From NCBI GenBank assembly GCA_973895155.1, contig OZ316893.1, positions 12,230,359-12,294,358 on the forward strand: DNA of 64,000 nucleotides, written 5' to 3'. A model generated the notes under the pieces. That model was not told the DNA's origin and ran no database searches. It was given only the letters and a program-made list of their open reading frames with translations. The position numbers and the translations under genes are program-made. Numbering within the stretch: the first letter of the stretch is position 1; each line of letters starts with the position of its first letter. This document shows positions 25,885-64,000 of this stretch, piece after piece. Source of the stretch: Marsupella aquatica (taxonomy: Eukaryota; Plantae; Marchantiophyta).

Positions 25885-26187
25885 ACGGTACTGCTCGAGG
25901 GAACGACGACTTCTTCCCTGTCTGCCGTGGCGACGTGGGTGTTCCAAAGGGCGAAACAGCAGACGGTGGATTCTCGAGTGCCATCTCTCTCTCTCGCTCT
26001 GACTTCAAACGAATCATCAATTCAAAGCTCACGCCCAACCCACACACCTAAATGGTCGCGTTCCAATACGACGCACCCTATAATTAGGTTTTGAAGGGCT
26101 AAATTAGTCTCTGTCTCTCGCACACTCGCTTCAAACGAACCGAAATGCACCAATTCAAAGCTCAAGCCCAATCGCACACACCTACAT
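25885..26187 (-). repeat. Inverted diverged copy of the RPN6 leader and first about 33 codons (16905-17208)
   Basis: The minus strand encodes MALENPPSAVSPFGTPTSPRQTGKKSSFPRA, nearly identical to RPN6 17109-17200. DNA similarity extends through the upstream tandem unit. Confidence 0.93.
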
Positions 26188-34749: not shown

Positions 34750-35469
34750 TTGTGGGCAATTGGGAATTGCTTTGGATTTGCACCGCCCCTTCATAGTCTT
34801 CCTTAGAGAAGACAATTGATTTGGGGACCTTGTAATCAGTGACATGTCAAACGCTAGTTTTGACCAGGCTGACAACAATGAGGGGTGGAAGCCTAAACAT
34901 GGCATTGTGAGCAATTTGGATTTGCGTTGGATTTGCTTTGGATTTGCACCGTCCCCTTGAGTTTTTCCGCAAGAAGGCAATTGATTTGGGGAACTCGTAA
35001 TCACTGACATGTCAAGTGCTAGTTTTGACCTGGCTGACAGTAACTAGGGGTGGAAGCCTAAACAGGGCACTGTGATTAAAATTTGGATTTGCACTGGACT
35101 TGCACCGTCCGTTTGACAGTCTTCCTGCAAGAATACAATTGATTACTCGTACATAATCACTGACATGTCAAGCCCTAGTTTTACCCGAGCTGACAGTAAT
35201 GAGGGATGGACACCCGCGTTCACACTGGGGGTAATGAGGTCCGGAAATCGGCTAAATTTGAGCTCTCTTCTCCTCCTCTCCTCCTCTCCCCCTCTCCCCC
35301 TCCTGTCCCAATGACATGGTTCGGTAGGCAATTGATTACTCTCAATCACTGACATGTCATGCGCTGGTTTTGACCGGGCTGACAGTAATGAGGGGATGGA
35401 CACCCGCGTTCACACTGGGGGTACAAGATCCGGAAATAGCTCGATCTGAGCTCCTGTCCTGTCCCAATT
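34750..35469 (+). repeat. Degenerate tandem array of about 160-190-bp units (4 copies), target of the large transposon insertion
   Basis: caattgatt...aatcactgacatgtca..gctagttttgacc.ggctgacagtaa.gagggg.tgga recurs at about 34815, 34980, 35137 and 35330. Confidence 0.85.
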
Positions 35470-35495
35470 TACGGTGTTCGAAATGTTGCGGGGAG
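35470..35495 (+). repeat. Left terminal inverted repeat
   Basis: tacggtgttcgaaatgttgcggggag. Confidence 0.93.
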
Positions 35496-38400
35496 TTTTT
35501 TCCAGAAAAAGAGTCTAAAAAGAGAAAATATTCAATATTTCACAAGAAAAATACAAATACCCCAACTTATTTTGTAGGATACCCTAAAGTGTAATTTGCA
35601 CGCGTTTGAAGTAATTTGAAATAATTTCTCACTCACTTCAGTAATTCAACAAAAACATTTTGAACATTATCATGTGATACATAATATCATTTACACATGA
35701 ATTATGTTTTTAAAATATTCTAACAAAATTGATATTTTTTCTCCACTTTTTGAAATTCAAAAACTATTTCATCCTTCATTTTTGTATACAATATTTTGAA
35801 ACTTTTCAATCCTTGAAATCACAAGAATTCTACTCATGAGTGAAAACTCACAAAATATTTCCTACACCGAACAAAAAAAATTCAAAGAGCAAAACATAAC
35901 ATTCAATCAGAGAGTTGGAGAGTAAAACACATTTATATACCAAATCAATGAAGAAGCAAAAAAAGTTGACCAAAATAAATCATCTTGAAAAGTGTGAATG
36001 TTTTTTTTCTCTCCTTACATAGTTGTTTTTTCTCTGTACGGTTCTGTAAAGTGAAAATTTCTCCCCTTATCTACAAGCCAACCAGAAATGTCCAACTGTC
36101 CAACTGTACTTTTTGTTGGCTCGAAGACATGGGGAGAAAATTTGTACTTTACTCAGCCAATACTTTTAAGTTTCAAGGAAAGAAGAGGCCAACCTGAAGG
36201 ATTAGGTTAGTCATCTGGGAAGAATGTTGTTACTCCATATCTACAAGTTCCAACCATGGCCAAGTAAGTCTGCATGTTGGTTCAACTCCTCCATTGATAG
36301 ATTTACTCTTCCCAATGGATTTGACTCGTCTATCATTGGGACATGGGCCTTGATCACAACAGACAAGCACCTCCTTCTTGCCTTCTATTTTTATGAAATT
36401 TATTAGTCCACTCTAATTGAGATAGGGAGTATATCATTCTGAGGTGGGTGGGATCCTCAAAGGACAAATCGTGCATCCCTCAATGGCAAAATTAGAGATG
36501 TTATGGAGCAACTAGAGGCCTGGTGTTGAATGCTGAACAAACAATTACCCCCAAATGTTGACATGCTTAAAGTTACTAATTATATAGGTCTACAAGTCCT
36601 TTATACCTCTGCATCCTTCAATGCTTGTCTTTTGGATTGGAAAATATTGGGCATCCAAGCACAGGATAGTATTGGGCTTAAAAGTGTCTTTCTTGTTGAA
36701 TCATGATGAAAATGTTTATGTCTGTGCATCCTGCAATGCTTGTCTTTTGGACAATATTGGCCTTAGAAGTGCCTTTCTTGTTGAATCATGATGAAACTGC
36801 AAGTACTCCTCAAGGTTTAAGAGCTGACAGTTTATTTCTTTGCAAGTTCTACAAAAACACTCTTGTGCCACTACTTTCAATGGAACGTTAATATATTTAC
36901 TAATGTGTCAAAAATATTTTGAACTGCCTCTTTGGTAGAAGTTTTGGGATTCAAAATGATCAATTCCATCCAGGCGATGATAGAGACATTATTGTGAAGT
37001 TTGAACAGTCCAAAGTCTTTACCAAACATTACACAAGATAGATTAATAAATAGCAATTTCTGTCAACTTTGAAATGAACTCTCAATCACATTACTTAAAA
37101 TCAAAGTACATTGTGTTGCCTCCAAACTCAAAGATAAGTAATTTTTGCCTTAAATACTAATTCTTGATGATTAGCAAGCTAGATAAAAAATAACTATTGG
37201 AGGCTGTCTGGTATCCAACAATGTTTTCTTTTGTGATCCTTCCAAGCCATTGCATTTCTATCGTCTCTTGTAGAGTGTATAACCTGAAAATCCTGAAAAA
37301 ACAACATGAAATATATTCACATTAATGATACTGAGAAAAAACAATACGAGTTTCCACAATACAATTAACACATGCAACGGTTGAAAAATTACCTTTGTTG
37401 AATCTTATCAGAAGATAATAATCCTTATAACTTGCCGTAGGCGGTGTTGAAACTAGCCATGACCAACTTGGAGTGCATCACTTTCACATTTGGATATGCA
37501 GGAATATCAATTTGTTTAGAACAGGTGGATGCAATAGGCAAAGAGCTGGAAGGTCGACTAGGGCTAAAATTCACATGACATATTGTACCTGCATTGTATT
37601 TCTCATCTGTAATAAACCTATATAATCTATAGGTTTCAACACCAGAAAATTGACCAATTGCTTCTTGAAATAAGTCTTTCAATGCTGGTGGAAAATCTAT
37701 TGAATATCTGACCCTTGACAAAAACTCTCTATTTGTGATTCCTTGTTGCGCACTGAAAAATGCTTGCATGGCTTTCACAGAGACATCTTTAAATGTAGTT
37801 GTCAACACAAGCTTCTTTTCAGCCTCGTTAATGAAGGGAGATGCCATCACAGTCTTCGCCAATGAGAAGAATCCGTCATGAAGTAGTGCACCAACCATGC
37901 TGCAAGCTCCAAATAGAGTCTCATATATGATATCTGCATACAATTTTGTAGTTGCTTTCTGAAATGCTTCAGTTGACCAGTTTGGGTCAAGTGTTACAAC
38001 CCTGCAATAATATTCAGGCATTATATCCTCCATGCTGTCAATGAGACCCTCTCTTGATTCTTCTGGAGCATTAATCAAAGACTGCATGAAACCATACCTG
38101 CAATAAAAAGTCTGATCATTACCTATAAAATTAAGATCACAGTATAAAATGAAAAGACAATAATATCATAGAAATAATGTATAACAACAAAGTGCACGGT
38201 TCCCACTAGGTACATTTACATACCATGTTGGTCGAACAGCTCAAAAATCTTCTATATAAATTGATCGTTTTGTTTTTTCTTGTTGCACTTGCATGTAAAT
38301 ATCTTCACGGGAGGGACATTTACCCATGGCATGAGCAATTGTGGCCATTGTGATTGGACGATGAACTTGTTTCTTTTTCAATATGAGAAGAAACATGAGT

Positions 38401-39300
38401 TGACCAACAAGTTGAACCTGATGGAATATGACAAGTAAAAACCTAGTTAAAATCAATAACATTAAAAAAATTGAAGCAATGATATAAACCACTGAAACAG
38501 TTTGGAACACTACAATTGAATAATATTTTAAAAACTTTACATTGTTATTTATGACTTACATCTTTCTTGGAGATTTCTGTAAACTGTTTTTTGGAATTAA
38601 GATGATGAAGTCCGCCACATCCCTCTGTGAAAACTGCATGGAATTCCTGCATTGCATAAATATGTTAATTATGATTCAAGGTTGAATTGCATGACTAGTC
38701 CCCAGACTAGTCTTGAACAAAATTATTGATTCATGATCAAGAAAACTTACTGCACTTCCACTAAATAGAGTCTTCCAAGCCCCTGTCAACAATCTACTTG
38801 TGACACCCCCTGCATCTACAGTTTCAGATTCCTCCAGTGTTACTTCTCCACTATGTGTTGTGTAGATTAACTTTGCTGCAAAATCTCCAAATATCTCTTG
38901 TCTTCTCAAGGCTTCTTGGCACATCTTTCGAATAGCAGTTAACTCATCATCGTCATAAAACTGCACAAACAAAATAAAGTTATTTAGATGTATAAACTTA
39001 AATGCAAAATGACATTAAATACAACAAGGCTATAGATAAGTATGAACATTTTCAAGACCGGGTTTCTTTTGTTTCTACATTACCTGAATTCGAATTTGGG
39101 GAACCTGCCTATAGAGTTTCCGAAAGTGAGAAAGTCCAATGTCAGAAATCTGATGGACCCTTAACAAGTATTTTGTCCTTTCAGTTTCTTTTTTGGCTTC
39201 AATGTACATATTTTCACAACTTGTAAGCGTCGGTTCTTCAAGCTGACATTTTCCAATCCATTCAATGTATTCGTCGCGCAGAGAGATAATGCGGGCTTCT

Positions 39301-39756
39301 TGTTGGGTATTTACTCTTACGTCTAGGTAGGTATGACGTGGTTGGTACAACAACGTGGGTTGGTACAACTACGTGGTTAGGTACAACTACGTGATTAGGT
39401 ACAACTATGTGGTTAGGTACAACTACGTGATTAGGTACAACTATGTGGTTAGGTACAACTACGTGATTAGGTACAACTATGTGGTTAGGTACAACTAAGT
39501 TGCACACTATATCATAAGAGGCATGTGTGCTTGGAGAGGTAGAACCAAGGCTCATTGTTATGGAGCCACTTGAGAGATAGGGAGAGCTTACACTGTGGAG
39601 ACTCGGTATAGCCGACGGGCTTAGAGTTCAGTAAAGCTCTCTTGTGTGTTCCCGTGGACGTAGCCTCAAGGAGGTGAACCACGTATCTCTTGTGTCGACT
39701 ATTGTGCGTTGGATGGTTCATGGGCTTGCCGTTGCGATCGTCGTCTATGCTCAACA
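39301..39756 (+). repeat. 5' LTR (456 bp) with internal 18-bp tandem repeat
   Basis: tgttgggtatttac...tatgctcaaca; gtg(g/a)ttaggtacaacta(c/t) repeated about 8-9 times. Confidence 0.97.
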
Positions 39757-39758
39757 AT

Positions 39759-39770
39759 TGGTATCAGAGC
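39759..39770 (+). promoter_or_regulatory. Primer-binding site for initiator tRNA-Met
   Basis: TGGTATCAGAGC, 2 nt after the 5' LTR. Confidence 0.95.
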
Positions 39771-40907
39771 ATGCTTGGGAGGTGACGTGTGTTCGTGACG
39801 GGATTTCATGACGGTTTTTCCAGCATTGAGTGTTGGTGGATTTTCCAGAGTTCCATCGCATGGAACTTGGAGTTTATGGGCTCAACGGATAGATCGGGGC
39901 AAGAGCTTTCTAACGGTGTGAAGAAATCGCTGAACGGAGCTCGTGGTGCAGAGAGATCTAAGTTTTCGTCATTCTGGATTTTGTGAAGAAAGTTGGCAAT
40001 CGACTCGGAGGGAGAAGCGTCAAGTGTTTTGACTCAACGGAGAGATTGAGGCAAGACGATTGTTTTGAGTCCGGGATTGGCTCTTTGATGCAAAGAGGAA
40101 GGCTAAGCAAAATCAATTACCTTGTTGGATTGGTGACGGCACCAAGTGCAATTGATCAACATTCGTTGTTGACAAGGTACCATTTTTTCTCTTTGAAAAA
40201 CTAATTCGAAATTGGCTATGACAATTGAGAGAAATCTGTCATCTTTACCAATTTTTTTCTCCCTCGTTCTTTCCTCGTTTTGGGTGCTTCTTATATCGAT
40301 CTTCACCGCCTCAAAGTCTAGTTTCCAAATCTGAAATCAGATCTTGATTTCGTCAAAACCCGAGTGAGATATCTTGCGTTTGGTGTCGAGGGGTACATTC
40401 TGCCGTGTGTATTTTCTGCGCGCGCGACCAGATTTCGACGACGAAGGGTGGTAGGGGGTTTTGGGGGTTCGAGGACACGTGTCAGCCCCTCGATTGTTCT
40501 TCCAAAATTCCCACAGGGCCTGTACAAGGGTCATAGAATATTCCAAAAAACCAGAGAGCTATTTTTTGACCGTCCGACAAAGATTTCATCCACCGAACGG
40601 TAACTTTTTTGGTTATTTTTGGGCGAGGTCGTAGCCATTGAAGTTGGCAATGCAGCGCACCAATCACATCGCAATTCCGACAACGGGTTGTACTTGGTAT
40701 TTCGGTTATTCCCTGAGGTGGTCAAAAAGGGGGAGTTTCCCAAGGTTTTACCCACCTCGACCGAAATTTGAATAACTTTTCCGTCAAATTTTGATTTTCA
40801 TTTTGGTTTTCAGTATTGGACTCCTAGCTTTGTGGGCTACGCGGCGGTGTTGAGTTTCGAGTTTTTTGAGAAGTTGTGAAAAACAACATTTTTTGTGACT
40901 TTCTCAT

Positions 40908-43900
40908 ATGAGTGATTCGGAGGAGTTTTTCGAAGACGTGGAACTTGAAGCACGAGGATCACCGCGGAGGTTTCAGGGGCAGAGAGAGGAGCAGGAGGAA
41001 GAGCATGTGACACCGATACCATCACCGGTGCGGCGTATGGTGGAGGAAGCAGTACTACTACCGGAGCTCACGGTAAAGAAGAAGATGGGGACTTTCAAGC
41101 TTGGGGGACCCAAGTATGAAGTGACAAAGTATGATGGGCGCTCTGACTACTTGCTATGGGAGAAGCAGGTGAAGGGAGTGCTTTATGCGTCAGGGATGGG
41201 CCAACTGCTGAGCCCTCGTGAAGACGATGTTGATGAGAAACAATGGAACCGCATGCAGGAGCAGGGAGTGTGGTGTGTTACACTCTATCTCATGCCTCCC
41301 ATCATCAAGCAGTTAGGTGCACATAAGGATTGCATGTCCTTGTTTGCGGAATTGCAGAGCAAATATCACCGCAAGGAGTTGTCGAACCGGCTCTACACTT
41401 CCTACAAACTGATGAGTTTCAGGATGAAGGAATCTGGTACGAAGTTGCAAGACCATGTGGATGCTTTCAACGACATGGTCGTTGACTTGGAAAACCTTGG
41501 GGAGACTTTGAATGATGAGACGAAGGCTCTGCAGCTTCTTAGTTCATTGCCTCCATCTTACCAGTCCCTATCACGAGTGTTGTTGCATCGTGATAGGGAT
41601 ACCATTTCATACAATGACATGGTAAGTTCTCTGCTTAGTGATGATCTTCAGTAGAAGATGCACATCACGTCACAGCCTTCATCATCTGGTGCTGCCCTCA
41701 ATGTTAACCGTGGGAGGAGTATGCAGCGACCAATTGGGGACCGTAGAACCCAGTTTAGATCTAAATCCAGATCTAAGTCCAAGGGTAAATCCCCTCAGAG
41801 GAGGCAGGTGACATGTTGGAAGTGCAACCAAGTTGGACACTGCAAGCGAGATTGTAAGGGAAAGGCAGCGGAAACTTCATCGGCAAATGTGGCTAGGGCT
41901 GATGGAGAAGCTGATTTACTCAATGATGAGTATGTTTTATGAAGCTGGGGGTATGCCCTGTGCACGTCATCTAGGAGAGCAGATGATGTGTGGATTCTTG
42001 ATTGTGCTTGCTCTTTTCATATTTGTTACATTCGTGAGTTTTTCAGTTCTTACTCTGTTTCAAACGGTTCAGTTCTAATGGGAAATGATCACTCCTGTCA
42101 AATTGAGGGAATTGGGTCTGTGAAGATTCAAATGTTTGATGGCGCTGTGCGCACAGTGTCCGGAGTCAGGTATGTACCTGGCATGCGTAAGAATCTGATT
42201 TCACTCGGTGTGTTGGATTCAAATGGTCATCAATGGAGCGTTATTGATGGTGAACTTCAAGTCAGGTCGAGAGAGACAGTGATTTTGAAGGGGAGTAGAC
42301 AAAAGAATTTGTATGTGTTACAGGGCAATACTGTATGTGGAGAGGCCAATGTAACCAAGTCTCACGAGGAGATGACTCAACTGTGGCATTCACGGCTAGG
42401 CCACATGAGTGAGAAGGGTTTGGCTATCTTACGGAAGAATGGACTCATTTTTGATTTGCAATCTTGTAAATTAGAGTTTTGTGAGCATTGCATTCTTGGA
42501 AAGCAGCATCGTCGTGCTTTTGGTGTTGGAACTCATCGTTCCAAAGCGGTTCTTGAGTACATACATAGTGACGTGTGGGGTCCATCCCCGACTCCCTCAC
42601 ACTCTGGAAAGTTGTACTATGTATCATTTATTGATGATTACTCAAGATTTGTGTGGATTTATTTCATGACGCATAAGTCTGATGTCTTGTCCATTTTTAA
42701 GAAGTGGAAGGCCCAGGTGGAGAATCAGACTGGAAACACGATCAAGTGTTTGGATACAAGGGTGAAGAGTCTGAGGTCAGACAACGGCGGGGAGTACACT
42801 TCAATGGAATTTGAAGAGTACTGTTCAGAACAGGGGATAACTCGTCATCTCACCACAGTTTATACTCCGCAGCAGAATGGTGTCGCTGAGAGGCTCAATC
42901 GGACACTGTTGGAGCGGTCACGGAGTATGTTGAGCCAATCAGGTTTACCACAAGAATTTTGGGCAGAAGCTGTCAATACCGCAGCTTATTTGGTAAATCT
43001 TTCTCCTTCTAGTGCTATCAATTTCAAAACGCCATTTGAGATGCGCTATAAGCGGCAAGCAGACTATCATGGCTTGGTAATTTTTGGAAGTGATGCATAT
43101 GCTCTCACACCAAAGTAGAATAGGACCAAGTTGGATCCTACCTCCAGGAAATGTGTTTTTCTTGGGTACCAGAGTGGTGTGAAAGCCTATAGGCTATGGG
43201 ATCCTATTGCCTGTAAGCTCGTTGTCAGTAGGGATGTTTCCTTCAATGAATCCAAATTATTGAAGGAGGGGGAGAATACTCAGGTCTCCGGTATTGACAA
43301 AGGAAAATCTCCTATCCCGGATCTCGTTGAGGGGGAGATTGGTTATGAGGTGCATGACCGGAGAGAAGGAGTTGCTCCAATTATGGAGCTGGTTCCTGTG
43401 CCAGAGGAACCAGAGGAGTTTGTTGATGCTGGTGAGCAACAAGTGGATATTGTTGAGCTTCAAATTGTACCAGCACACGCAGATCAACCGGAGTCATCGG
43501 CTAGAAGAACATCTGGTCGCACTGTACGCGCTCCATCAAGGTATGGACAGTGGGTTGATTCATCTCAACTGCAAGAGGATGATTTTACAGCTGATGATGA
43601 GGGTGATGCGTTAATTTTGGAAGAAGGAGAACCTTCTTCATTTCATGAGGCAAGTGCTTCAAAAAAGAAGCAGAAGTGGACTGCAGCAATGCAAACGGAG
43701 ATGCAGTCACTAAAGGACAACAAAACTTGGGAGCTTGTTAAGCTGCCTAAGGGTCAGCAAGTGGTGGACAGCAAGTGGATTTACAAGCTGAAGGATAATT
43801 CCATAGGAGGTGGATCGAAGGTCTACAAGGCTAGATTGGTAGCAAAGGGATTCACACAAGAGAAAGGTGTGGATTACAATGAGGTCTTCTCACCAGTTGC

Positions 43901-45215
43901 TAAGTACTCTACAATACAACTATTGTGTGTACTTGTTGTAATATTTGGTCTGCTCCTAGATCAGATGGATGTTGTCACAGCTTTCCTCTATGGCACATTG
44001 GAAGAGGTGATCTTCATGAGACAACCGCTAGGTTTTGTGAAGAGAGGACAAGAGGAATTGGTTTGCAGATTGCTGAAATCCTTGTATGGGTTGAAGCAGT
44101 CACCAAGACAGTGGAACAAGCGGTTTGACGATTGGATTCGGTCACAAGGTTTTCACAGAAGTGTATTTGACCCTTGTGTGTATTTGAAACCGGTGAAGAA
44201 TGTTGTCTTTGGGTTCATTGTTTTAGTACTTTATGTGGATGACATGCTAATTGTAGCCAAGGATAGGTCTGAGATTGTTAAGCTCAAGGCACTGCTTAGT
44301 GCAGAGTTTAAGATGAAGGACTTAGGGCCAGCTAAGAGGATTTTGGGTATGGAGATCACTAGGGACTTGGAGGCTGGCAAGCTATGGTTGACGCAGAGCA
44401 GTTATGCGAGGAAGGTAATTGCAAGGTTCAACATGGGGAATAGCAAGCCAGTAAGTACCCCGTTGGCTCCACACTTCAAGTTATCATCAGCGTTCTGTCC
44501 TACGGATGACACAGAGAAGGGGTTGATGTCAAAGGTTCCATATGACAAGGCAGTGGGGAGTCTCATGTATTTGATGACTTGCACTAGACCTGATCTTGCC
44601 ATGCCTATGGGCAAGGTGAGCAGGTACATGTCGAATCCAGGGAAGGTACACTGGGAAGCAGTGAAGTGGATTATCAGGTACTTGAAGGGTACCGTGGATC
44701 ATGGTCTTTTATTTGATGCGAATGCAAAGAATGCTAGATCATTGATTGGCTATGTAGATTCTGACTATGGACAAGATTTGAACCGAAGGAGATCAACAAC
44801 AGGATACGTGTTCACACTTGGCGGTGGATGCATAAGTTGGAGGTCTACTTTGCAGAAGTGTATTGCTCAGTCTACTACAGAAGCGGAGTATGTTGCAGCT
44901 GCGGAAGCAGCAAAGGAAGCGATTTGGTTGGATAGACTTATCACTGAAATGGGATTGCCACAGGGGAATGTGAAGCTCCATTGTGATAGTCAAAGTGCGC
45001 TCCACCTTGCTGTGAACCAGGTGATGGACAGCAGAGTGAAGCACATTGACGTCAGGTACCATTTTATCAGGCAGGCTGTGTCTGATAATTTGTTTGAGCT
45101 AGTCAAGATTGATGGTAAACTCAACCCGGCTGACGCATTTACCAAAGTGATTCCTTTGGAGAGTTTCTCTAGACACCATGACGTATTGCAGGTTTTGCAA
45201 TTGCATCACAAGTAG
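40908..45215 (+). pseudogene. Copia gag-pol in one reading frame with three in-frame stops (TAG 41652, TGA 41940, TAG 43116)
   Basis: Zinc knuckle CWKCNQVGHCKRDC, protease WILDCACSFH, GAG-pre-integrase LWHSRLGHMS, integrase HSDVWGP/LRSDNGGEY/PQQNGVAER, RT YKARLVAKG/LYVDDML and RNase H YVDSDY/STTEAEY. The four ORF pieces share the same frame. Confidence 0.95.
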
Positions 45216-45395
45216 AGTTTTCTTAAACATTCATTGTAATTACTGATATATGCTCTTCCTCATTCCTATGTATTAGGCTACGGCTTAGTTCTGGTTTGCT
45301 CTAGTTAGAGAGGGAAACCGGTTTGGTTTCTGTCCAGAACTTCCCGCTGAGGGATCATATACATTGGCAGTATTACTCTCCCCTAGACCAGAGTC

Positions 45396-45405
45396 AAGGG
45401 GAAGA
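45396..45405 (+). promoter_or_regulatory. Polypurine tract
   Basis: aaggggaaga immediately before the 3' LTR. Confidence 0.85.
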
Positions 45406-45406
45406 T

Positions 45407-45863
45407 TGTTGGGTATTTACTCTTACGTCTAGGTTAGGTATGACGTGGTTGGTACAACAACGTGGGTTGGTACAACTACGTGGTTAGGTACAACTACGTG
45501 ATTAGGTACAACTATGTGGTTAGGTACAACTACGTGATTAGGTACAACTATGTGGTTAGGTACAACTACGTGATTAGGTACAACTATGTGGTTAGGTACA
45601 ACTAAGTTGCACACTATATCATAAGAGGCATGTGTGCTTGGAGAGGTAGAACCAAGGCTCATTGTTATGGAGCCACTTGAGAGATAGGGAGAGCTTACAC
45701 TGTGGAGACTCGGTATAGCCGACGGGCTTAGAGTTCAGTAAAGCTCTCTTGTGTGTTCCCGTGGACGTAGCCTCAAGGAGGTGAACCACGTATCTCTTGT
45801 GTCGACTATTGTGCGTTGGATGGTTCATGGGCTTGTCGTTGCGATCGTCGTCTATGCTCAACA
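45407..45863 (+). repeat. 3' LTR (457 bp)
   Basis: By eye it matches the 5' LTR except for one extra T (aggttagg) and one C/T change (gcttgcc vs gcttgtc). Confidence 0.97.
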
Positions 45864-48800
45864 CTTCTGAAAATTTCCCTTTCCCGTATGATGGAGTAAG
45901 CAAATAATCTCTGAAATAATGCTCAACAATCCACAGCATGTTGTTAAATTCAACAATGAAAACTATTCACTTTAAATTTACAAAATCATAATTTTAATGG
46001 AATGCATTCAGCTCACTGCATCTGATGAAAATGAACACTGAAATAAACATGTCAACCATTAATTACCTGAAGATTTGTAATGATCTGTCCAAATCTTTTT
46101 GAACAAACTCAGGAACAAGATCGGGTATGAGTTTTTGCAATTGTTCCCACATGTGCCACCTTGGAATGGCTGCTGCCTCAAAATAGTATCCAAAGTCATA
46201 CTTGGTATACGAACTTAGGCCTTCTAAACCATTTAACACTGGTGTAACAAAATCTTCCAGCATTGCATCTGATAATCCCAATTTTGCTTCTCTTCGATGT
46301 TGAAGGAATTCCAGATCTGCACAAGCAACTGTAGCATCCATTTTATTGCGTTCCTCTACTAAAACGGCATCAAAATTTTCCCAAAAGATTGCCATGGCTT
46401 GATTTGGTGCTTGATCCACAGGCAACTTTATGCCTTTATCCAATTTTTGAAGCCGCTCTTGTGTTGCACAATACGCATCTAGCAGGGCTGATGTCTCTGT
46501 CTCACTTGTTATAAGATCGGCCTCAAATCGGTCATTCTCGGGTGTGCCTGTACAATCACAAAATAGTTCTAAAAATATTCAACCATCCACTCAAGCCTAC
46601 ATATTGTAAGAATCAATCCAAACCCGAATCAAAATCCTGAACTCTAAATCCTGAACCCTAATCAACACACAATTCTGACATTTTCACTTACGTCTTTGTA
46701 GTAATCTTGATTGTCTTTCAATAACCTCTTCATTTTCCAATATAATGGGACTATGAACAGTCCCTACAAGGCTTACTTCATTCTCATGTCTTGAAGATCC
46801 AAAGACTAGGGCTCCTTGTGCAGGTATAGCTTCGTTCAAAACACCTCTGGTTCTTGAAGTTTGAAATGAATGAGCTCGTAAAGGTAAAGTTGGCAGTAAT
46901 AATGCACCTGTATCATGTTTCACAATTACCCAACACATTAGGGTTGGATTGTCAGATTGCTGTCACTCACATAGCCACTCTGTACCCTTTTTAATATATA
47001 TTATGATTTCATGGCAGCACTGTTAACCTACTAACGCCTTACTGTAGACATCTTGAAAAGCCTTACATACTACAGTAAAGCATCTCAAAGCTTGGTATCC
47101 AGATTGAGCTTCGGCCATAACTATTACTCAAGACTTAGATATATAGAAACTTTACAAAAGTTGTATGAGGTCAGGCAAGGGAATCCACATGAAGAGACCA
47201 GAGCATCTAATGGAGAGCAATAGAGCAATAATTAGCACGCTGAGAAAAGCAAAATAATGTCTTGACAATTCCTTATACAAAAGTTGACCAAAAGACCGAT
47301 GACTTAGTATGCCAATGATTTACCATTTAATTACTCTACTCTCCTAAATGCAGGTGTACATTATGATCAGAACTGTGATGAGTGCGATATGATTTCATTT
47401 TACTCAGCAGAACTAAAGAATGTTTTTTGCTTCAAAGCTTTGGCTGGCTGCACACAAGCCTATGATGCTAGACACTCCATTTGTTCCTCATACTAATCAG
47501 CGTTGATGGAAAATACCATGGCTGCTATGGCTTGAAGTGTGTACTAAGGGTCTTCCTCTTGAGCTAAGAAAACATGTACAAACTTGCTTCAACACGCTTG
47601 CAATAAAAAACTCATTGGTCGGTAGTCGATCTTGAAGTGGCCAAACTTTCAAGATTCCCCAATGCTTTCATCAGTTAATTGTTTTGTTGCACTAAAATGC
47701 AAAAGAAGGAAACACCTGAAGCGGGATTGGGACCACAAGTAAGCTTTGGAGCATCAATCACCCCACAACAAGGCAGACAAACAGAACACCACCAGAAGCG
47801 CACAACAAAAACCATGTTGGTCAAAAATTGAGGGGATGCGGTACAAAATGCACAACCAAGAAGAGCAATCATTTGCAGCCCATAGCCTCATTCAGAACAT
47901 GCTTTCATAGATCTTACATATGCATGCTGTGCAATACTAATTTCATAGGTACACCTACAAACTAACCCCCACCCATGCTAACATGTAAGAAATTGAATAA
48001 TTATTAAACTAAAGTGATCTATGGTCAAGGAAACTCAAAGGATGCACGTACTTGAGTCACCATGGGGTGAAGACGAGCTGTCATTGGGCTGGGTTTGAAA
48101 CTCAGAAGTCGAAGGGTTTCCCAATTGAGGTGACGAGCTCGTTAATGGAGATGACAAATTAGAGGATCTTCTTGACAGATTTTGCGGGGCTTCAAACCAG
48201 AACAATGCAATAAGCAATTAGATACCTAATTTGATCAATTACATAGAAGTTACACTGTATAATCCATAAAGCTTCATGGTGTATTTTTCACATCAATGGA
48301 GCTAGAAATGATTTACCTGTTACTCAATATTACTTGTGCATCGATCAAGACAAATGAAGTTGATATCCTTACCTGTCAAAGTTATTGTGGGGTCGTGCAA
48401 GTTTTCTGTCTCCTCAATCCCTTCAGACTCAGAAGCTGCAAAGCTCGAGTTTGAGCTCTCTCTTTGAGTGTTAGAATTCCATGACTGTGAAGGACTTTGC
48501 ACATGTTCTGTTTCATTTTCAAATGCCTGACGATGCTCTGTCGTTGGAGAATCTTCTGAATAGACAAAAGTTTCAACTAATATGCAAATCATATCCAAAG
48601 ACTTGCTGGGAAAGAGCAGAAAAATGTCATAATCTAAGAATCTAGTAACAATGATGACAAAAATGTTTGCTTGCTTTACCTGAACGTGCAGTCGAGTGAC
48701 CATGGATATTTCGTCTGGTATCTCGTTTACATCGACGTGTTCCTTGTGAAGGCACAATAATTGTTGCACCTGAACAACCAGCCGCCTCAACATGGTAATG

Positions 48801-50504
48801 TCTTATTTGTTGTGGCGTCATTTGACAAGAGGGGTCTGGAATGTATACTACTTTATCAAACCGAGACACGTTTCTCCATTCGGTGTCCCCCGATAGAAAA
48901 TATGAATCTAGTGTTGCACCACCTAGTTTGTCCAGGTCGTCTTTGTGTTGCCCAACATTTGTCATTCTCAAAAAGCATCCTAATATGTCAGCGTAACCAG
49001 TATTTTGGGCCCATTCTTGAGATGCCACAATTTCCCGAATATGCCACTGAGCAGTATTTTCCCGGAATTGACCTCCATCATAGACACCACCCCAAGGCGT
49101 TGACCCAGGTAGACTAACATATATTGGAGGCCTGAATTTTTTCACTCTTCGCATGTAGCAACTCTGATTGCCTGTGTCCACTTGTTGTGCCTCCCAAATT
49201 TGTTGAGGACAATATATAGCACGACTCACTGGTTTATCATAATTCCTTTGATTGCAAATTATTGGAGGAGGTCTCGCAATCATCTGTCTCCTTCCTCTGT
49301 TTGCCCCACCTCCACCTCTGTTCCCTCCACCTCCACGTCTATTTGATCCACGTCCAGATTCTCCTTCAGGTTGATAATTGTATTGGTGATACGAGGTTGG
49401 GAATGTTGGAAATTCATATAGTGGAAGTGTCACTGGCTCAGTAGTTTCTCGAGGACCCGATTGTGTACTAGTTCCTAGTGGGATCATCCTTGAATTTCTG
49501 TTGTATCCTTGGACAGGGTTTCTCTGACGAGGATCTCGACTATCAGTAGGTTCATCCATATTGCAATTCTGAATGCAACGCAAGATTGAAACCCAAGATC
49601 CAAATGGCCAAGAACCTGAGGCTCTGCTCTAGTTCATTACTACTTTTGCGAACAGAGTGCAAAGTGTCAAGCTCAAAGGTAGAATCACCGAGTAGTACAA
49701 ATTATCTTATATTATGAGCAGAAAGTAATAGATGTTGTTAGAGTACAGCCACCATTTCAAGAATTTGGTGAACATTAGTATCACATTAACTTCCAGTACA
49801 TATCATATTTGTTAAAAATCATCTCATCATAATGAAGACTAGCTACCGCAGCTCTTTTTAGTAGCTCTTTTTAGCCCTCGGATACATAATTGCCAAAAGC
49901 AGGTTACCGTATTTCTTATTTTCTTTAGAAGACACTGCTACGCATGTAAGATGATTGAACTATTGTAAACTATAGTATTGTAGCTAGTAGTACACTCCAA
50001 ACTATTCAAAGTTAGAGACATGCATGAAAGAAATAAGTATTTTAAAATTGTGTCGATTATTAAGGTCCAATTAGAGACATGCAAAATTTATAATTAACAA
50101 GAACTTTACATGTCACCAAACAATTATGTTTGTTGGATTTGACTTGTCAATGGTGAAGAGTGGGCATCGTGACTTATTCCCCTAGTGAAGGTTGGAAAAA
50201 CTAGTGTGAAGAATATGATTGGTTCATGTGCACGAATGATACATATTTTTTGGTGCCAAATTCCAATAGAAAGTTTGATAGTAAACAAGGCAATAACTAT
50301 TACAAAAAAATCCCTACCATTGATATCTATTGATGAATGGTCAGTAATTTGTAACATTGGTTAGTATGCATGAATTTAATTGTAAAAAACAAACATGATG
50401 TGGTAGCTTGTGTGACAGTTATAACGCATGTGGGATTCATGCCATTTGCCACTTGCAAAATGACAATTAATGCTTGTGACAAATTGGGTTGAGCCTCTTA
50501 TGGG

Positions 50505-51245
50505 ATTCAGGGAGACGCTTCAATGATTTGTCATTCAATGCACCTCGATTCTCCCCCACATCGGGAAATACCTAATGCTCTCTCCCCATTTTTGTGGCCC
50601 CGTTCAGTCTTGTGAAGGGCACAGATTCTGGAGGAGAATCTAATGCTCGATTGTTTTAACTAGGCTATTATAACTGAATGTAGTCGGGTGGCCGAGGGAT
50701 GGAGGCGCAGGGCTGGCCGTGGCAGGGTCCGTGGCAAGTGGTGAGTCAGGCAAGGGTGCTGGGGCTGGCCGTGGCAGAAAGGAAGGAGGGCGGCGTGTGG
50801 GCTGGCCGGGGCCGTCGTGAGTGGTGAGGCAGGCGAGGGCGATGGGGCTCGCCATGGCAGAAAGGAAGGAGGGCGGCGTGCGGGCTGGCCGTGGCAGGAA
50901 GGAGGGAGGTAGCCGGGTGGCCGAGGGAGGGAGGGACTCAGGCGGCCAAGGGAGAGGGGCAGTTGTGCGGCCAAGGAGGAAGGGCGCAGGGCTGGCCGTG
51001 GCAGGAAGGAGGGAGGAAGGTAGTCGCGGCCGAGGGAGGGAGAGACTCAATCGGGAGTCGGTAGTCCCGTGCATTCAGGGAGACGAGTCCCTGCATTGTC
51101 ATTCAATGCACCTCGATTCTCCCCCATAGCCCACCTGAATACTCTCTCCATTTTTGTGTCTCACTTTCAAGCCAGCCCCATTTTTGGGTCCCAGTTCAGT
51201 TTTGAGGAGGGCACAGATTTTTGATTGAGGAGTTCTAATGTTTGA
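50505..51245 (+). repeat. GC/G-rich repeat island bracketed by degenerate direct repeats
   Basis: gggctggccg(tggcag) occurs about 5 times with gaaggagggcggcgtg. The flanking block attcagggagacg..tgtcattcaatgcacctcgattctccccca..gggcacagatt occurs at about 50505-50630 and 51073-51220. Confidence 0.8.
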
Positions 51246-52869
51246 TGGTTTTAAGTTATTCACAAATAATGTAAAACTATAATATTAATTTTAAAAATAT
51301 CAATATATTTAATAAAAAATATATAATTATTATAAAATATTAAATGGTAATGAGCATGGAGAATTGATGCACAGAAGTAGTGTGTGACCTAGTGGTATTG
51401 GAGGTCAGTTGAGACTAAGATGTGGCGTGTTAAAGGCACACGATGGGCAACTTTTCTTTTCTTTGATTGAGGGCATGGAAAGGAATGAACTTTGGAGGGG
51501 GCGGGGGTGTCTCATTGTATTTAAAAATGAAAATGGTAAATGAGATATATATGGTTCAAGTAGTTTGGAGATAGCAAAAATAACAAAGGAAACACCCATG
51601 AGAGCCAGGGAGATAAATTAACCTCTTTTGTTAATTTCCTATACCTGCTCATTGTTGTGAGGTGCCAATCATGTTCCTGGTGGGTAGTTGCTTTCAGTTT
51701 TAGGAAGAATCCAACAAAAGAGGTTAGCACAAGAAGCCAACAAAAGAGGTTAGAAGTCAAAAGGCAAACAATATTAGAGGTGGTGTTGACAAGAGAAGAA
51801 AAGCCTTGTGCAACAAGCTGAGAAACCAGTAAGACAAACGAAAGCCCCTATGAAAAAGGCACAAAAACCAACCCAGCACAAGGCCCCTATGAAGTCCAAA
51901 AGTGTGTGGTAGAGAAGACAACAGGGCCAGGAGTGGTAAGTGTGCTCCAATTGACAGGTTTTGAAAGTTTGCAAGGAATTGGTGCAAGCATGGGTCTGAA
52001 TTCTTTGAGTGTCTTGACAAATGTGACAACACCTTTGGTACACTTGTTTCCCAGGGTAGCCAACTTAGACTATTTCCAACCTTGTATGTAGAAAAGATAT
52101 GTGATTGAGTGATTAATTGTAGGGTGGTAGACTGCCGTTGGCTTCTAGGTTTTCTATTGATTTGAAAACAAATTTCATGAATAAAGTTTTGCTTCTTATA
52201 CAATAAGATGTGTGCTTACCATAAATGGTTTTGAAGATAAATGGTTTTTTATGTGATCATGTCTCCTCAACTTTTTTGTTGCTGCTATATGGCGCATCCT
52301 TGGTTCATATCCCCAAGTCCAATTTGTTTGGACATTATTTACAGACCCCCATGGGAAGTTCCTTCCAAAATCCCTAGCACCACGTTGAGCCACATCAGCA
52401 GGAATGGGCCACAAACAAGAAAATGTAGATGTGAAAGAAGAACAAAACCTGATGGTTCGTGTTTGTGACAAGGCAAAAAAAACTGTCAATCCCGGTAACT
52501 GTAAAAATGATAAAAAAAACTGAAGAGTAAGTTGAAACAAACAAAGAACGAGGTAAAGAGTAATTAACACTTGGAAGTTCTAGAATTGATATATCAGTGT
52601 TTGCATTAAATGTTAGATTTTTTCTAATTTTAAAAGATTTTTAAATAAACACTGCTAGAGGACATAGAAACAAACTGTTGGGCTTCAATTCCAAGATTTT
52701 GTAATAAGTATTTGGTGAAGTAACAAATTGTTGGGTTTCCAAAGTTTTGTAATAAATATTTGATAAAGTAAAAACAAACTGTTGGGTTTCCAAGCACTGG
52801 TAACTGCAGTAAGTTGTAGATGGTACGTTTTAGATAGCTTGAGATGACAAAGGGAATGGCTTGATGACT

Positions 52870-53875
52870 TGAGAAAACATGACAAAGCTAATGGCTACCC
52901 TTATACTCTTAGATCTGGCAATTTGCCCCCTCACCCAAGCCAGTTTTTGGTGAATTTAGTAGGAATATTAAATCACTCCTACAAGTTACAAACAAATCCT
53001 GCTACTTATATTATTTGGCAATTCCTCCTACTAATAGATGGATTGGGACACAGGGCACATCTGGGAAATTGATAAATCCAGGCAAACATGAAGGCAAACA
53101 TTGATTTTTGACATTGGCAAGGGACTTTGTAGCTGAGGTGAACAGTTCTGTTGACAGACATGACATGTCTTATGCACAAAATTCAATGATAACACCAATT
53201 TGTCTCTAAATATCAATGGTTTATAGTCTGAAAATCAACACCTGAGCTTCAGAATATCATAACAAAATATCGAGTGAAGTTTTAAAGGAGTTGAGTTGGC
53301 CTTGACATTGATGCTACTGTTGAAGTGGCTCCTGATATTGGTGACCCAGGTGAAGAGCCAGCTCAACCCTTGGGGCTGTACAATGTCTTGCAAGGATGAG
53401 ACACATGGGACAGATTGTAGGAGGTTGAAAAAAATGTTAGTTTGTAGCTTATGTGAGACAACATCTACTATTCATAGTTGATTAAAGTGAATCAAAGAGA
53501 TCTTGTTTGCTCAATGTGTTTCAAGAGTACCCCAAACTTCAAATGTGAGGAGGAGTTATAAATTTCTGAAGTTTGCTCAATATTTGAGTAGTATATGAAA
53601 GGAGTTATAAGTTTCTGAAGTTTTCTCAATGCTTGAATGAGTAGTAAGTTTTGTAAATTGTAATCAAATATTTTGCACATTTTTAGCTTTTTTATAAGCA
53701 AATTTTAACTATTGTCCATTCTTTGTTTTTAACTTAAGTATGTGTGACACTATTTGACTTGTGACCACAATTAGTGTCATACTATATTAGTGTCACACAC
53801 CCTAATTACCATCACTTACCTCAAATATAACCTCACAGTAATTAGAGTCTGTGAGACTACATACTGTAAAGAGTG
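52870..53875 (+). mobile_element. Second, oppositely oriented member of the 14698-15972 TIR family nested in the large transposon (left end not found)
   Basis: It ends ...atactgtaaagagtg|TA. 53300-53875 is the reverse complement of about 14698-15260, and it carries the same VDRHxMSYAQNSMI remnant at about 53150-53190. Confidence 0.8.
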
Positions 53876-55214
53876 TAGTTACCCTTGGAAATATTATAAT
53901 GGATTAACTAGTAAAACATGCAAGCTGGGAAGCAATGGGGAACCATTGGCTAAATGACACTAAGAGAAAATATCTCTTTTTGAATTATAAGTGACCTAGC
54001 AATACTTCAGTTGTTAGTGGCCTATAGGTGTCATGCTAATTACAAGAGATTTAATCCCAAGATTTTTATAGATTACATAAAGACATGTTAGTGACTAGTC
54101 AAACACTGAATCATGTAAATGTTAGTGACTAGTCAAAAAGTCACTCATGTGACCATGGTAGGTGAGTCCTAAGGAAGTCATATAAATAGCAGAAGTAGAC
54201 TTTAGTTGCAAGACATCAGTATACCTTACACCCATTTCATGCAAACTAATTTAGACTACACATTTTTTCATGTACACTTGTGAAATAGTGTTTGAATTAT
54301 TTGTATACCAACACTATATATAATCACAACATTTAGTGTTATATCCATTGCTTTTCTAGGTCCACAGGCATAACAAAGTTACAACTTGAGAATTCCTCCA
54401 AGCACTATTCTTCCTCCTTCAACTTCTTCCCTCCTTTTGTATTTCAAACTTGTCTTTCTCAATGAATGTATTGCTCACTATGTTAGGGTACAAGGCCTTG
54501 GAGGCAGTTTCATTGTTTTTTCACCAGAGCTAATTAATCTATCAGCCATGTAACATCCTAAAGCTAGATAGTGTACCAGGGCTCAAAAGGAAAGTCTAGA
54601 ATTATTTCGTGGTCGCTCGTTTATTCAGAATTTATGCAGGTCTTTAGTGGAGTCTTCTCTATCTAATCACAGTTCACGTGCTTTTGATTCAAGGTAAGAT
54701 CCATCCAAAATGTTCCTTTCTTAATGCCCTTTGCAAGTTTTCCATTTGTATTTTTCAGGACATTCTTGGAGCATTATGCCCACCACAAGATCTGGATCAC
54801 CTCTTGAGTAAGATTGTCCATTACTTTCACTAAATCAAGAAAAAATAAAATCTCTCAAGCCTTCAATATAATAAGGTTTTATTTGCTAGACCATTAGGGA
54901 AACAACCCCTGCAAATGCAAGCTAAAGCTCTCATTTTTTGGTCATATTCCATAATGCCAACTAAACATGACTTTACTACATACTTCTAAAGTCTATTTTT
55001 TGCCTTCAATATTGTGTTTGGTTTTTTATGGTTTACTGGATTTTAATGATCCATGCTCCATATTTTTCAATATGGATGCTAAGGCCAGTTGTTCTTGAAT
55101 ATTTTCCAGAAAAGTTGACATTATTTGCTCAATAATCTTGGAAACTTTTAGTCAATTTTATCAATGCATATGTAGTCGTATAAAATTCAGGAGTCGTAGT
55201 GTTTCTTAAGTCAA

Positions 55215-56130
55215 ATTTTGATTCTAAGCTTGGTTTCCCTGAAACTTTGTCAACATAGTCGTGGCTCTTTTTTCCAAAATCTGGCAAAGTTTGAGTGCAT
55301 TCCATGCAGCAAATGTTGCCCTATAAAATTTGAGCAACTCGCAGCTTTTTTTAGGTCAAATTTTATCGAGTTCATATCTCTTGATCGTTTTGTTTTTTCA
55401 ATTTCGATTCTGAACTCGGTTTTCCCTGAAACTTTGCCAGCACAGTCGTGACTCTTTCTTTTAAAATCTGGTAAAGTTTGAGTGCATTCTGTGCAGCAAA
55501 TGTTGCCCTACGAAATTCGAGCAACTCGCAGCTATTTTTAGGTCAAATTTTATCGAGTTTGTATCTCTTGATTGTTTTGTTTTTTCAATTTCAATTCTGA
55601 GCTCGGTTTTCCCTGAAACTTTGCCAGCACGGTCGTGACTCTTTCTTCTAAAATCTGGCAAAGTTTGAGTGCATTCTGTGCAGCAAATGTTGCCCTACGA
55701 AATTCGAGCAACTCGCAGCTTTTTTTAGGTCAAATTTTTTCGAGTTCGTATCTCTTGATCGTTTTGTTTTTTCAGTTTCAATTCTGAGTTCGGTTTTCCC
55801 TGAAACTTTGTCAGCACGGTCGTGACTCTTTCTTCTAAGATCTGGCAAAGTTTGAGTGCATCCTGTGCAACAAATGTTGCCCTACGAAATTCGAGCAACT
55901 CGCAACTTTTTTTAGGTCAAATTTTGTCGAGTTTGTATCTCTTGATCGTTTTGTTTTTTCAGTTTCGATTCTGAGCTCGGTTTTCCTTGAAACTTTGCCA
56001 GCACAGTCGTGACTCTTTCTTCTAAGATCTGGCAAAGTTGGAGTGCATTCTATGCAGCAAATGTTGCCCTACAAAATTTGAGCAACTCGCAGCATTTTTT
56101 AGGTGTCATTTTTTGGCAAAGTTTGAGTGC
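55215..56130 (+). repeat. 187-bp tandem array (about 4.5 well-conserved copies)
   Basis: Near-identical ORFs recur at 55461, 55648 and 55835 (period 187). Unit: tctggcaaagtttgagtgcatt..gcagcaaatgttgccctac.aaatt.gagcaactcgcagc...ctgaaactttgccagcac.gtcgtgactctt. Confidence 0.95.
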
Positions 56131-57072
56131 ATTTCATCATGAGAATGCTGCCCTAGAAAATCTGAGAGAGTGACAGGTTTCCTTAGGTCCAATACTATCG
56201 ATTTCAATCTCCCGATCACCATGGCGTTTGACAAGACCACCACCATTGTTGATGTGGATGTTCTATTCACAATCTTCAATGGAGAAAGATTTGTAAGTGA
56301 AATAATGCTTTCTGAATTTATCTCTTTGGATTAGGTTGTGTTATTTCAGTTTGTTTGTCCATGAGCTCATTATGCCCTGTCTGTTACAAGTCGCTTTTAC
56401 AGATGCAACGTTGACTCTAAAATCAAGTCTCCCATTGCTAAGTTCATGCACTGGATGACACCCTACTTGATACACCGTATCTTCAATTTTTAGGTATGTT
56501 ACATACTACCATAGGAGAAATCTTTGTGATTCACATTTTGTATGGTGGGCTAATGTTAGCTTTGAATGTGGCTGCTTGCCGTCCAACATAATTTTTGAAC
56601 TCGGATGACAAGAATTCATTCTAAATTTAAGCTTTTTCCTAGGTCATAGTCTTTCTATTGCACATAGTTTGACAAATCATTGAGAATTTAAATCATTTTA
56701 CAGGTTACTCAATATGGAAGGACTGAAAGACAAAATAAAAAAAAGAAGAAGTGAGACTCCAATTCTAAAGGTAAGATATTTTCTCACTACTAATATACTT
56801 TGAGATCATAAAATGTTTGGAATATATTTGAAACCAGTACACATTTTGTGAGGCCAATTCATTGTCAGGTGAATATATTGATCGTTGACCTACTGGGGGG
56901 GCGTGACTTCCCGTATAGTGGAAGAAACCTCATTATCCGGTGGCCGATACAGTCTATATTCTATGGCTGTGTTTTGTGTCCGAAATGTTTAGCATATATT
57001 TGATACTCATCGTAGGTTTATATTTGTTATTATTACTGCAAATTTAAGATGAAACTCGTTTTTCTTTTATAG

Positions 57073-58413
57073 GGCAAAAAAATAGTGAAGGTATCTTCCG
57101 AGAGGTTCTCTGCAGCATCTCTTTATTTCTGTGAAATCATCAAGCTTGCTCAAAAAGCTGGCGGGAAAGCAGGACATTTTCATACTAAAATTCTCTATAA
57201 GTGGTAGTTAGGCGAATACTATCTTTTCGAATATGGAGTACAGATATTATCCGAGGGAAACCTAAAAGGAAATCAGTCAACCTTTTTTGATGGTTTTCAC
57301 AGTTTAAGAAGAGATGGAAGTTGGATTGCTTGGTTTGATGAAAAATAATGGAGTAGCATCAATCATATGATAATGAATCGTTACAATCTATCATCTGTTG
57401 GGAGAGGCTTATCAGATCGGATATAGAAGTTCCGAACTGATCCAGACATGTATCTAAGAAGTAAGAAAGATCATTACCAGAAATTTGAAAAATCCCGTAT
57501 AAAGTTTACAAATTTCACCAAGAAATCTTTCGATTTTGTTGGTAGATTTTCCTCCAGCTATTTGATTGAGGAAGATTTGGAAACACCTTGGGCAAATCGA
57601 ATTATAGTCTGGAGACCGATGATCGAGCCTTTCTACAAGATGAATATTTCATCAAGAGTGGAGATTTGGATGGATGGTGATGAAATCATTGGAGGTCGGA
57701 TGAAAGGAGGTGTTCCAGAGAAAGATAGATCTTTTGTTCAGTTGTTTGTGGAAGAAATATGGAATAATAAATATACAGTGAAGAGGTCAGATACACGATC
57801 TGCATTGAAAAATGTCATGAGGGCAATTGGCCCATTAGTGAACTGGCGAGAAGGGAAAGGTAATCATTTTGTGAGCTTCTACCGTAACAAGTTGAAGATA
57901 TCACAAACACAGGATCCTACTGTGGTTCAATTAGAATTGCTCTATGAGCAATGTGCACATCGATTACTGTTTGAAATTATTTTTGTTCTTTTCTGTGAAC
58001 ACTTTTGGCCAGTGGTGGAGAGTTTTATTGAGATTATGCCTCCAATGATGGAACTTAGCAGTGAGCTTTTGGCTTGTTTTTCAAAGCCTGAACTCATGAA
58101 AAAAGCCATTCATGCATATCCTTTATTCATCACAAAGGATTATTGCAATGAAGTTCATACAGATGTAGATGAAAGCGAGTTTACAATGTTCATGGCATGT
58201 AATCCATCGAATGAAAGTAGAGGTGGAGATTTAGTGATGCTAAAATATGGAATTAAAATTCCAATTTTAGATGGAGATTTGTTTTTTGTTCGGGGTCAAG
58301 ATCCTCATGCTACATCGTATAGAAGTCCACCAATGAAACCAGTATATGTAGTTGGAATTGCCGTAAACCAAAAACTTGGCAATGCTTATGAGTTTCAAGG
58401 TGAAAATAATTAA
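57073..58413 (+). pseudogene. Fe(II)/2OG dioxygenase-fold gene, TET/JBP-like. ORF 57448-58413 is open; the same frame extends back to a splice acceptor at about 57072 through three stops.
   Basis: C-terminal double-stranded beta-helix pattern CNEVHTDVDESEFTMFMAC...RGGDLVMLKYGIKIPILDGDLFFVRGQDPHAT (HxD...H triad, GG-L and GD motifs). In-frame stops at 57205, 57346 and 57424. Short candidate exons lie upstream from ATG 56221. Confidence 0.65.
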
Positions 58414-63952: not shown

Positions 63953-63978
63953 CTCCCCGCAACATTTCAAACACCGTA
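63953..63978 (-). repeat. Right terminal inverted repeat
   Basis: ctccccgcaacatttcaaacaccgta, the reverse complement of the left TIR with one mismatch. Confidence 0.93.
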
Positions 63979-64000
63979 CCCAATTACATGGTTCTCGTCT

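Follow-up and report, generated by a model that had tools for sequence, protein, structure and literature searches.

A stretch of 64,000 nucleotides from the liverwort Marsupella aquatica (assembly GCA_973895155.1, contig OZ316893.1, positions 12,230,359 to 12,294,358; hereafter the window, numbered from its first letter) contains a gene for a HECT-type ubiquitin ligase, and this gene is cargo of a multi-copy DNA transposon bounded by terminal inverted repeats (TIRs) and a target-site duplication (TSD). The superfamily concerned, IS3EU/GingerRoot, is already known; a HECT cargo in a plant member appears to be new. That the gene travels with a transposon had been proposed in an earlier reading of the letters and open reading frames of the window (the sequence-only reading), and the TIRs, a 7-bp TSD and several insertion flanks now bear this out. 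The element is composed as follows:

35463–35469, plus strand: left TSD, CCCAATT, identical to the 7 bases at 63979–63985
35470–63978, no strand assigned: IS3EU/GingerRoot-type DNA transposon, 28,509 bp (21,941 bp without a nested copia retrotransposon), delimited by TIRs, TSD and a step in contig depth
35470–35495, plus strand: left TIR, starting TACGG; 25 of its 26 bases match the right TIR, with patchy similarity beyond
58855–60520, plus strand: transposase gene of four exons (58855–59254, 59361–59623, 59760–60185, 60293–60520), 438-aa open frame
63953–63978, minus strand: right TIR, ending CCGTA, paired with the left TIR
63979–63985, plus strand: right TSD, CCCAATT, paired with the left TSD

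The transposase possesses residues D133, D190 and E224, matches the Pfam family rva_4 in two exons (59.5 and 31.1 bits; cut-off 26) and, compared by eye, is identical to Sl-GR-005 at 47 of the 93 catalytic-core positions (PMC6839031). Termini, TSD and transposase together fit the IS3EU/GingerRoot assignment. In the accessible text of the cited sources, members of this superfamily have TA...TA termini (PMC6839031, PMC10045372), with TAYGG...CCRTA in fungal families (PMC12730594); their TSDs mostly measure 6 bp, and 7 bp in 5 of the 77 copies from Selaginella (PMC6839031); TIRs exceed 30 bp in fungal families (PMC12730594) and reach 100–150 bp in Selaginella (PMC6839031). A related-locus search with a transposase exon returned only two short loci, whose 18-residue match was too short to be used.

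Seven public runs were listed, with five holders and no RNA run among these; contigs from four of the runs (X1, X2, X3 and X5), covering two organisms, were compared with the window, and their depth is not a copy count. In all four runs depth steps up at 35470, in X2 from 13 outside the element to 52–67 over the HECT gene, and the raised depth continues across that gene. Loose-ended contigs stop at the same position (1, 3, 5 and 2 in X1, X2, X3 and X5, respectively), and their agreement is only 0.5–0.6 where several were pooled, indicating that the flanks differ. This pattern fits several copies of the element. The HECT gene, lying within a TIR element that has several flanks, does not occupy a fixed low-copy host locus, and the conserved locus that the sequence-only reading had considered as an alternative is contradicted by the mobile end.

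The HECT gene is read from the minus strand, from an ATG at 49559 to a TAA at 37425. The spliced model comprises 10 exons (roughly nine or ten had been anticipated), 3,321 nt and 1,106 codons; all nine introns are GT-AG and their phases match, with exons 2–4, 8 and 9 (5 of 10) placed by splice signals and phase alone. The RG/GG tract, globular region, Ser-rich linker and helical region previously described from the translations are all present in it:

48680–49559, minus strand: exon 1, with start codon, RG/GG tract and conserved globular domain (about 49277–48774)
49358–49284, minus strand: RG/GG tract, codons 68–92, 28% R and 44% G
48831–49244, minus strand: predicted ubiquitin-like beta-grasp domain with about 55–60 inserted residues (AlphaFold2 and structure alignment)
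48373–48555, minus strand: exon 2, Ser-rich linker (GT-AG and phase only)
48052–48189, minus strand: exon 3, Ser-rich linker (GT-AG and phase only)
46692–46907, minus strand: exon 4 (GT-AG and phase only)
46067–46547, minus strand: exon 5, helical region (homology to Calypogeia and Riccia proteins)
45864–45910, minus strand: exon 6, segment preceding the copia (Calypogeia protein alignment runs over the insertion point)
39301–45863, plus strand: Ty1/copia long terminal repeat (LTR) retrotransposon within exon 6, TSD CTTCT, stops in gag and pol
39084–39295, minus strand: exon 6, segment after the copia (gene model and Calypogeia alignment)
38751–38960, minus strand: exon 7, where the HECT N-lobe begins; contains the DAGG motif (38816–38805; Calypogeia identity)
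38560–38646, minus strand: exon 8 (GT-AG and phase only)
38224–38417, minus strand: exon 9, with an in-frame TGA at 38243–38241 (splice signals and phase)
37425–38097, minus strand: exon 10, end of the N-lobe and HECT C-lobe, catalytic Cys codon 37523–37521, stop at 37425 (Pfam HECT)

Two further points concern this model. Alternative splicing around the TGA was considered, but three runs carry a 4-base insertion at 38108, which speaks for the stretch being an intron. What looked like a frameshift where exon 1 ends vanished once the phases were matched.

The Ser-rich linker occupies codons 295–402 (25% S), the DAGG motif lies at codon 768, LPIASTC at codons 1069–1075, and YGKL is terminal; each motif sits on the minus strand where the sequence-only reading had placed it. 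The Pfam HECT profile (PF00632) recognizes the last exon alone at 34 bits (cut-off 23.9; E 3.2e-8; profile positions 162–299 of 306), which upholds the domain assignment made by that reading. Of the putative N-lobe with its E2-binding region, exons 7 and 9, scanned singly, gave no HECT profile match; the DxGG motif is kept in the Calypogeia protein. A PDB sequence search with the last exon yielded 13 matches at E up to 1, with HUWE1 and HECTD3 at E 0.001–0.07 and solved HECT domains at E 0.001–0.9. Cys1075 of 1,106 lies some 32 residues before the C-terminus and corresponds in the alignment to the catalytic Cys of HUWE1 and HECTD3; the TC motif of exon 10 and the FIT motif before it align with these two ligases as well, whose N-terminal architecture is not shared. 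The −4 position of a HECT C-terminus is usually Phe; here it is occupied by Tyr. Word-index protein searches found no homologue among 935 candidates for the last exon and none among 2,926 for exon 1. Judging by the conserved motifs, the ligase encoded by intact copies is likely to be catalytically active. The distance from canonical HECT domains agrees with the earlier impression that the protein is unlike the known plant UPL ligases. Pfam gave no match to UPL subfamily domains (ARM, IQ, UBA, canonical ubiquitin) in the eight scanned exon stretches or in the liverwort homologues; a beta-grasp fold, which subfamily VI also has, is predicted.

Since half of the exons rest on splice signals and a copia interrupts exon 6, the exons at 46–49.6 kb might be suspected of forming a separate gene, with the HECT model an artefact of joining over the copia; this concern had been voiced in the sequence-only reading. 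The reading frame is, however, unbroken across the empty copia site. Contigs from X2 (2,495 nt), X5 (2,451 nt) and X3 (505 nt) reach both copia flanks, where their matches share the 5 bases of the TSD; both organisms therefore have copies without the copia. Moreover, a single Calypogeia protein, CAM6102184.1, matches exons 1, 5, 6 and 7 in order, in an alignment that crosses the insertion point: identity is 54% over 169 aa of exon 1, 38% over 77 aa of exon 5 (28% over 92 aa for the Riccia protein) and about 58–60% (80 aa) for exon 7. Because this protein unites the HECT start with the helical region and the N-terminal domain, all three belong to one gene, and we consider two separate genes extremely improbable. 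The copia LTRs (TG...CA) are identical at 455 of 456 aligned bases, with one gap, which indicates a very recent insertion. Each LTR (39336–39497, 45443–45604) contains nine copies of an 18-bp unit.

The N-terminal region could not be named by the sequence-only reading. This holds at the level of profiles, as no meaningful match was found in Pfam, PHROGs or NCBIfam, and a PDB sequence search with exon 1 and its profile gave 0 matches at E 10; a fold can now be predicted, however. HMMER with exon 1 against 1.84 billion representatives returned 13 hits, eight of which are real homologues; the other five (P0008, P0009, P0011, P0012 and P0013) are repeat proteins, and their matches were discounted as chance. 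The homologues bearing an organism name are all from liverworts: four Calypogeia fissa proteins (from four contigs) and one from Riccia sorocarpa, with 25–53% identity in the N-terminal domain. Both genera also retain the helical region. No relatives of the N-terminal domain were found in viral contigs or metagenomes.

With an alignment of 11 sequences (the eight homologues, two cluster members and the window domain), AlphaFold2 produced a model with a predicted local distance difference test score (pLDDT) of 73 and a predicted template modelling score (pTM) of 0.70; the single-sequence fold reached a pLDDT of 32. VIA-align, run on the Foldseek hits and independently on 48,161 representatives, placed the ubiquitin-like domain of TBK1 first both times. 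Model residues 13–150 match this domain over 79 of 82 residues (Z 7.2, root-mean-square deviation (rmsd) 2.9) and UFM1 over 77 of 79 (Z 6.4, rmsd 2.5). In the search of the 48,161 representatives, 44 of 50 rows are beta-grasp by title or fold, six could not be assigned, none of the 50 reaches Z 8, and the top rows lie within 1 Z unit of each other (ubiquitin, UBX, PB1, RA and UFM1 families compared). About 138 model residues span about 80 aligned residues, hence the fold has long insertions. Two results speak against the assignment: Foldseek gave nothing under E 0.001, its top rows being ubiquitin-like domains all the same, and the best Z of 7.2 falls below 8, the tool's level for more than a common arrangement. 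On the strength of the model, the N-terminal region probably adopts a ubiquitin-like beta-grasp fold with insertions.

A quite different origin, a captured single-jelly-roll viral capsid protein with an Arg/Gly arm fused to the ligase, is suggested by ESM Atlas feature hits for the window domain, which are all viral clusters, the Pfam-labelled ones being capsids (0.87–0.89), and by the RG-rich tract preceding the domain. However, these scores are below 0.9, the recognition value is 1918 against 2300, and at most 160 features are shared, making the hits a lead only, while a Calypogeia homologue in the Atlas gave no usable hit. The RG/GG tract, partly a 21-bp tandem repeat, is missing in the 10 aligned homologues; the model built from the alignment has an alpha/beta fold that matches those of beta-grasp domains, and no capsid jelly-roll appears among the rows listed from the PDB, BFVD and the 48,161 representatives. 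We therefore regard a capsid origin as very improbable.

Between the ligase and the transposase lies a third gene:

55214–56104, no strand assigned: tandem array of a 187-bp unit (4.8 copies, 92% match), directly upstream of the start codon of the dioxygenase-like gene
56221–58413, plus strand: dioxygenase-like gene of several exons; its HxD...H motif looks TET/JBP-like by eye, and the long last exon contains three in-frame stops

The HxD...H triad and its spacing resemble, by eye, a PU-type TET/JBP sequence. The gene has no match in Pfam, PHROGs or NCBIfam profiles and 0 matches at E 10 in a PDB sequence search, and a word-index protein search found no homologue among 128 candidates. The ligase had been called the element's second protein; it is indeed a gene of the element, but the element has three genes rather than two. 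CpG in all three genes is at 0.46–0.51 of expected, versus 0.81 in the host RPN6 gene, suggesting that the element has been methylated.

We hypothesize, tentatively, that in intact copies the ligase is the element's accessory enzyme, most likely ubiquitinating the transposase for removal. HECT domains accept ubiquitin from an E2 onto a C-lobe Cys; here, the N-lobe would bind a host E2 and ubiquitin would be transferred onto Cys1075, with the helical region and the beta-grasp domain docking the substrate and the degradation machinery. Docking to p97 or the proteasome is common among ubiquitin-like and UBX domains, and the ubiquitin-like domain may accordingly hand the ubiquitinated transposase to the host p97/proteasome system. 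The transposase would thereby be removed from DNA after strand transfer, or be held at a low level. Prediction of a complex between the N-terminal domain and the products of three transposase exons, made without an alignment, scored 0.02 and counts neither way. As a substrate, the transposase ranks first, a possibility somewhat short of probable; host silencing factors come behind it, and a passenger role comes last. The sequence-only reading had suggested chromatin or silencing factors as possible targets, or regulation of the transposase.

In the second of these readings, the ligase would be an anti-silencing enzyme that ubiquitinates host chromatin or silencing proteins and, together with the TET/JBP-like dioxygenase, keeps the element unmethylated. 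The dioxygenase-like gene in the same element favors this, the layout being that of TET-carrying fungal IS3EU families (PMC12730594, accessible text), in which the TET genes are proposed to counter methylation silencing. The CpG depletion of the three genes speaks of past methylation, and several of the fold matches with ubiquitin-like domains dock chromatin proteins (RING1B, SAP18, USP7). However, the matches to chromatin proteins are no better than those to unrelated beta-grasp domains, profile scans detected no chromatin-reader domain, and the dioxygenase matches no profile and has three stops; overall we find an anti-silencing role rather unlikely. Alternatively, the gene could be a passenger, i.e., a HECT gene of host origin (one like UPL5, with its ubiquitin domain, for instance) that was captured long ago and diverged without benefit to the element. 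GingerRoot elements of Selaginella do capture intron-bearing pieces of host genes (22 of 77; PMC6839031), plant subfamily VI combines a ubiquitin domain with HECT (PMC3712016), and three cargo lesions in the present copy imply that transposition or persistence needs no ligase in cis. On the other hand, the captures described in the accessible text of PMC6839031 are fragments of 84–1,654 bp, 79–98% identical to their parents, and never whole genes, whereas the cargo here is a whole 10-exon gene that reaches only E 0.001–0.9 to solved HECT domains and has no Pfam ubiquitin match. Two further signs point to selection, namely a domain conserved in two liverwort classes and the confinement of indels to introns, leaving the passenger explanation improbable.

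Several observations weigh against a working, element-borne ligase, the reading we prefer. The HECT frame in the window is not intact: with the copia within exon 6 and codon 877 turned into an in-frame TGA, which the sequence-only reading had not mentioned, the full protein cannot be made from this copy, a pseudogene. The TGA site (38243) is not among the variants listed (40 of 148 variant rows), and the splice acceptor of exon 7 (38961) is mutated in X1 and in part of X3, which means that those copies are decaying too. The annotation of CAM6102184.1 stops after the exon 7 equivalent, and none of the homologues seen has a C-lobe. Finally, the dioxygenase-like neighbour points to an anti-silencing role as well.

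The remaining variants describe the other copies of the element. Among the 12 of 25 indel rows listed, all three within 37425–39295 fall in predicted introns, exons making up 74% of this stretch; the insert of 435 nt at 47767 lies in a predicted intron too. The 10 exonic substitutions listed (four synonymous, six non-synonymous) are few and mostly private to the present copy; a 1-base gap lies somewhere within 45864–46085 in all four runs. An N-terminal domain shared by Calypogeia and Riccia proteins, combined with intronic indels, suggests an old partnership with the element, and the HECT gene is very probably a long-standing element gene and not a recent capture. Contigs at 37617, 37683, 38047 and 38313 match briefly and then diverge from the window; two of them continue, by eye, as diverged HECT coding sequence, which suggests further families in the same genomes.

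Among known systems, GingerRoot of Selaginella lepidophylla shares the TA...TA termini, a TSD of 6–8 bp and an integrase-type DDE transposase with the present element (PMC6839031). The latter, however, measures 22 kb without the copia against 3.9–12.9 kb, has a near-perfect TIR of 26 bp against 100–150 bp, and carries two whole accessory genes where the Selaginella elements hold short host fragments. Neither HECT nor ubiquitin is mentioned in the text of PMC6839031 or in its searched supplement, and liverworts are not in its Table 2. According to the accessible text of PMC12730594, the TET-carrying IS3EU elements of rust fungi and Tuber have the same TAYGG...CCRTA ends and likewise three genes: the dioxygenase is flanked by the transposase on one side and, on the other, by an enzyme that modifies proteins and is encoded on the opposite strand. 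In the fungi this third gene encodes an alpha-kinase instead of a HECT ligase; the TSD is 6 bp there and 7 bp here, and the present element differs further in its plant host and in a dioxygenase recognized by motif only.

Plant HECT evolution has been described as conservative, without large amplifications, in six subfamilies (PMC3712016, accessible text). The nearest architecture is that of UPL5 (subfamily VI), with an N-terminal ubiquitin-like domain and a C-terminal HECT as here. Unlike UPL5, the present protein has no Pfam ubiquitin match, contains long insertions in the predicted beta-grasp fold, matches the HECT profile barely above the cut-off and is encoded by a multi-copy gene within a transposon. 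We found no published account of HECT in IS3EU/GingerRoot, on which Repbase records and the supplements of PMC10045372 and PMC6839031 may bear.

GingerRoot elements have so far been known in plants as carriers of gene fragments, whereas this cargo is a whole gene. A whole, conserved ligase in such an element would add a transposon-borne HECT type to the six host subfamilies and offers a testable system for ubiquitination serving transposition. A predicted fold can also be named for a previously unannotated liverwort domain, and liverwort proteins of this type that are labelled "unnamed" and occur in multiple copies are probably encoded by transposons. We speculate that liverworts keep a three-enzyme IS3EU/GingerRoot lineage consisting of a transposase, a DNA dioxygenase resembling TET/JBP and a HECT ligase whose beta-grasp domain is new and confined to liverworts; in this lineage, HECT would have descended with the element and would make up a seventh, transposon-borne plant HECT group. 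We hold this to be possible, leaning towards doubtful; if true, a land-plant transposon would possess its own TET-like demethylase.

Other parts of the element and its surroundings contain further repeats and genes. The stretch from the transposase to the right TIR (60650–63000) consists of degenerate repeats with a spacing of about 200 bp. High-copy repeats are nested in the element at 50856–53975, where many different flanks at 52338–52344 mark the end of another mobile element; 53040–53879 is an inverted copy of 14694–15522 (82%). Outside the element, an intronless gene for the proteasome subunit RPN6 is located at 17109–18479 on the plus strand (Pfam RPN6_N and PCI), its 5′ region having an inverted look-alike at 25885–26187, and a host gene with ARID and Myb/SANT-like domains is located at 21040–24749 on the minus strand.

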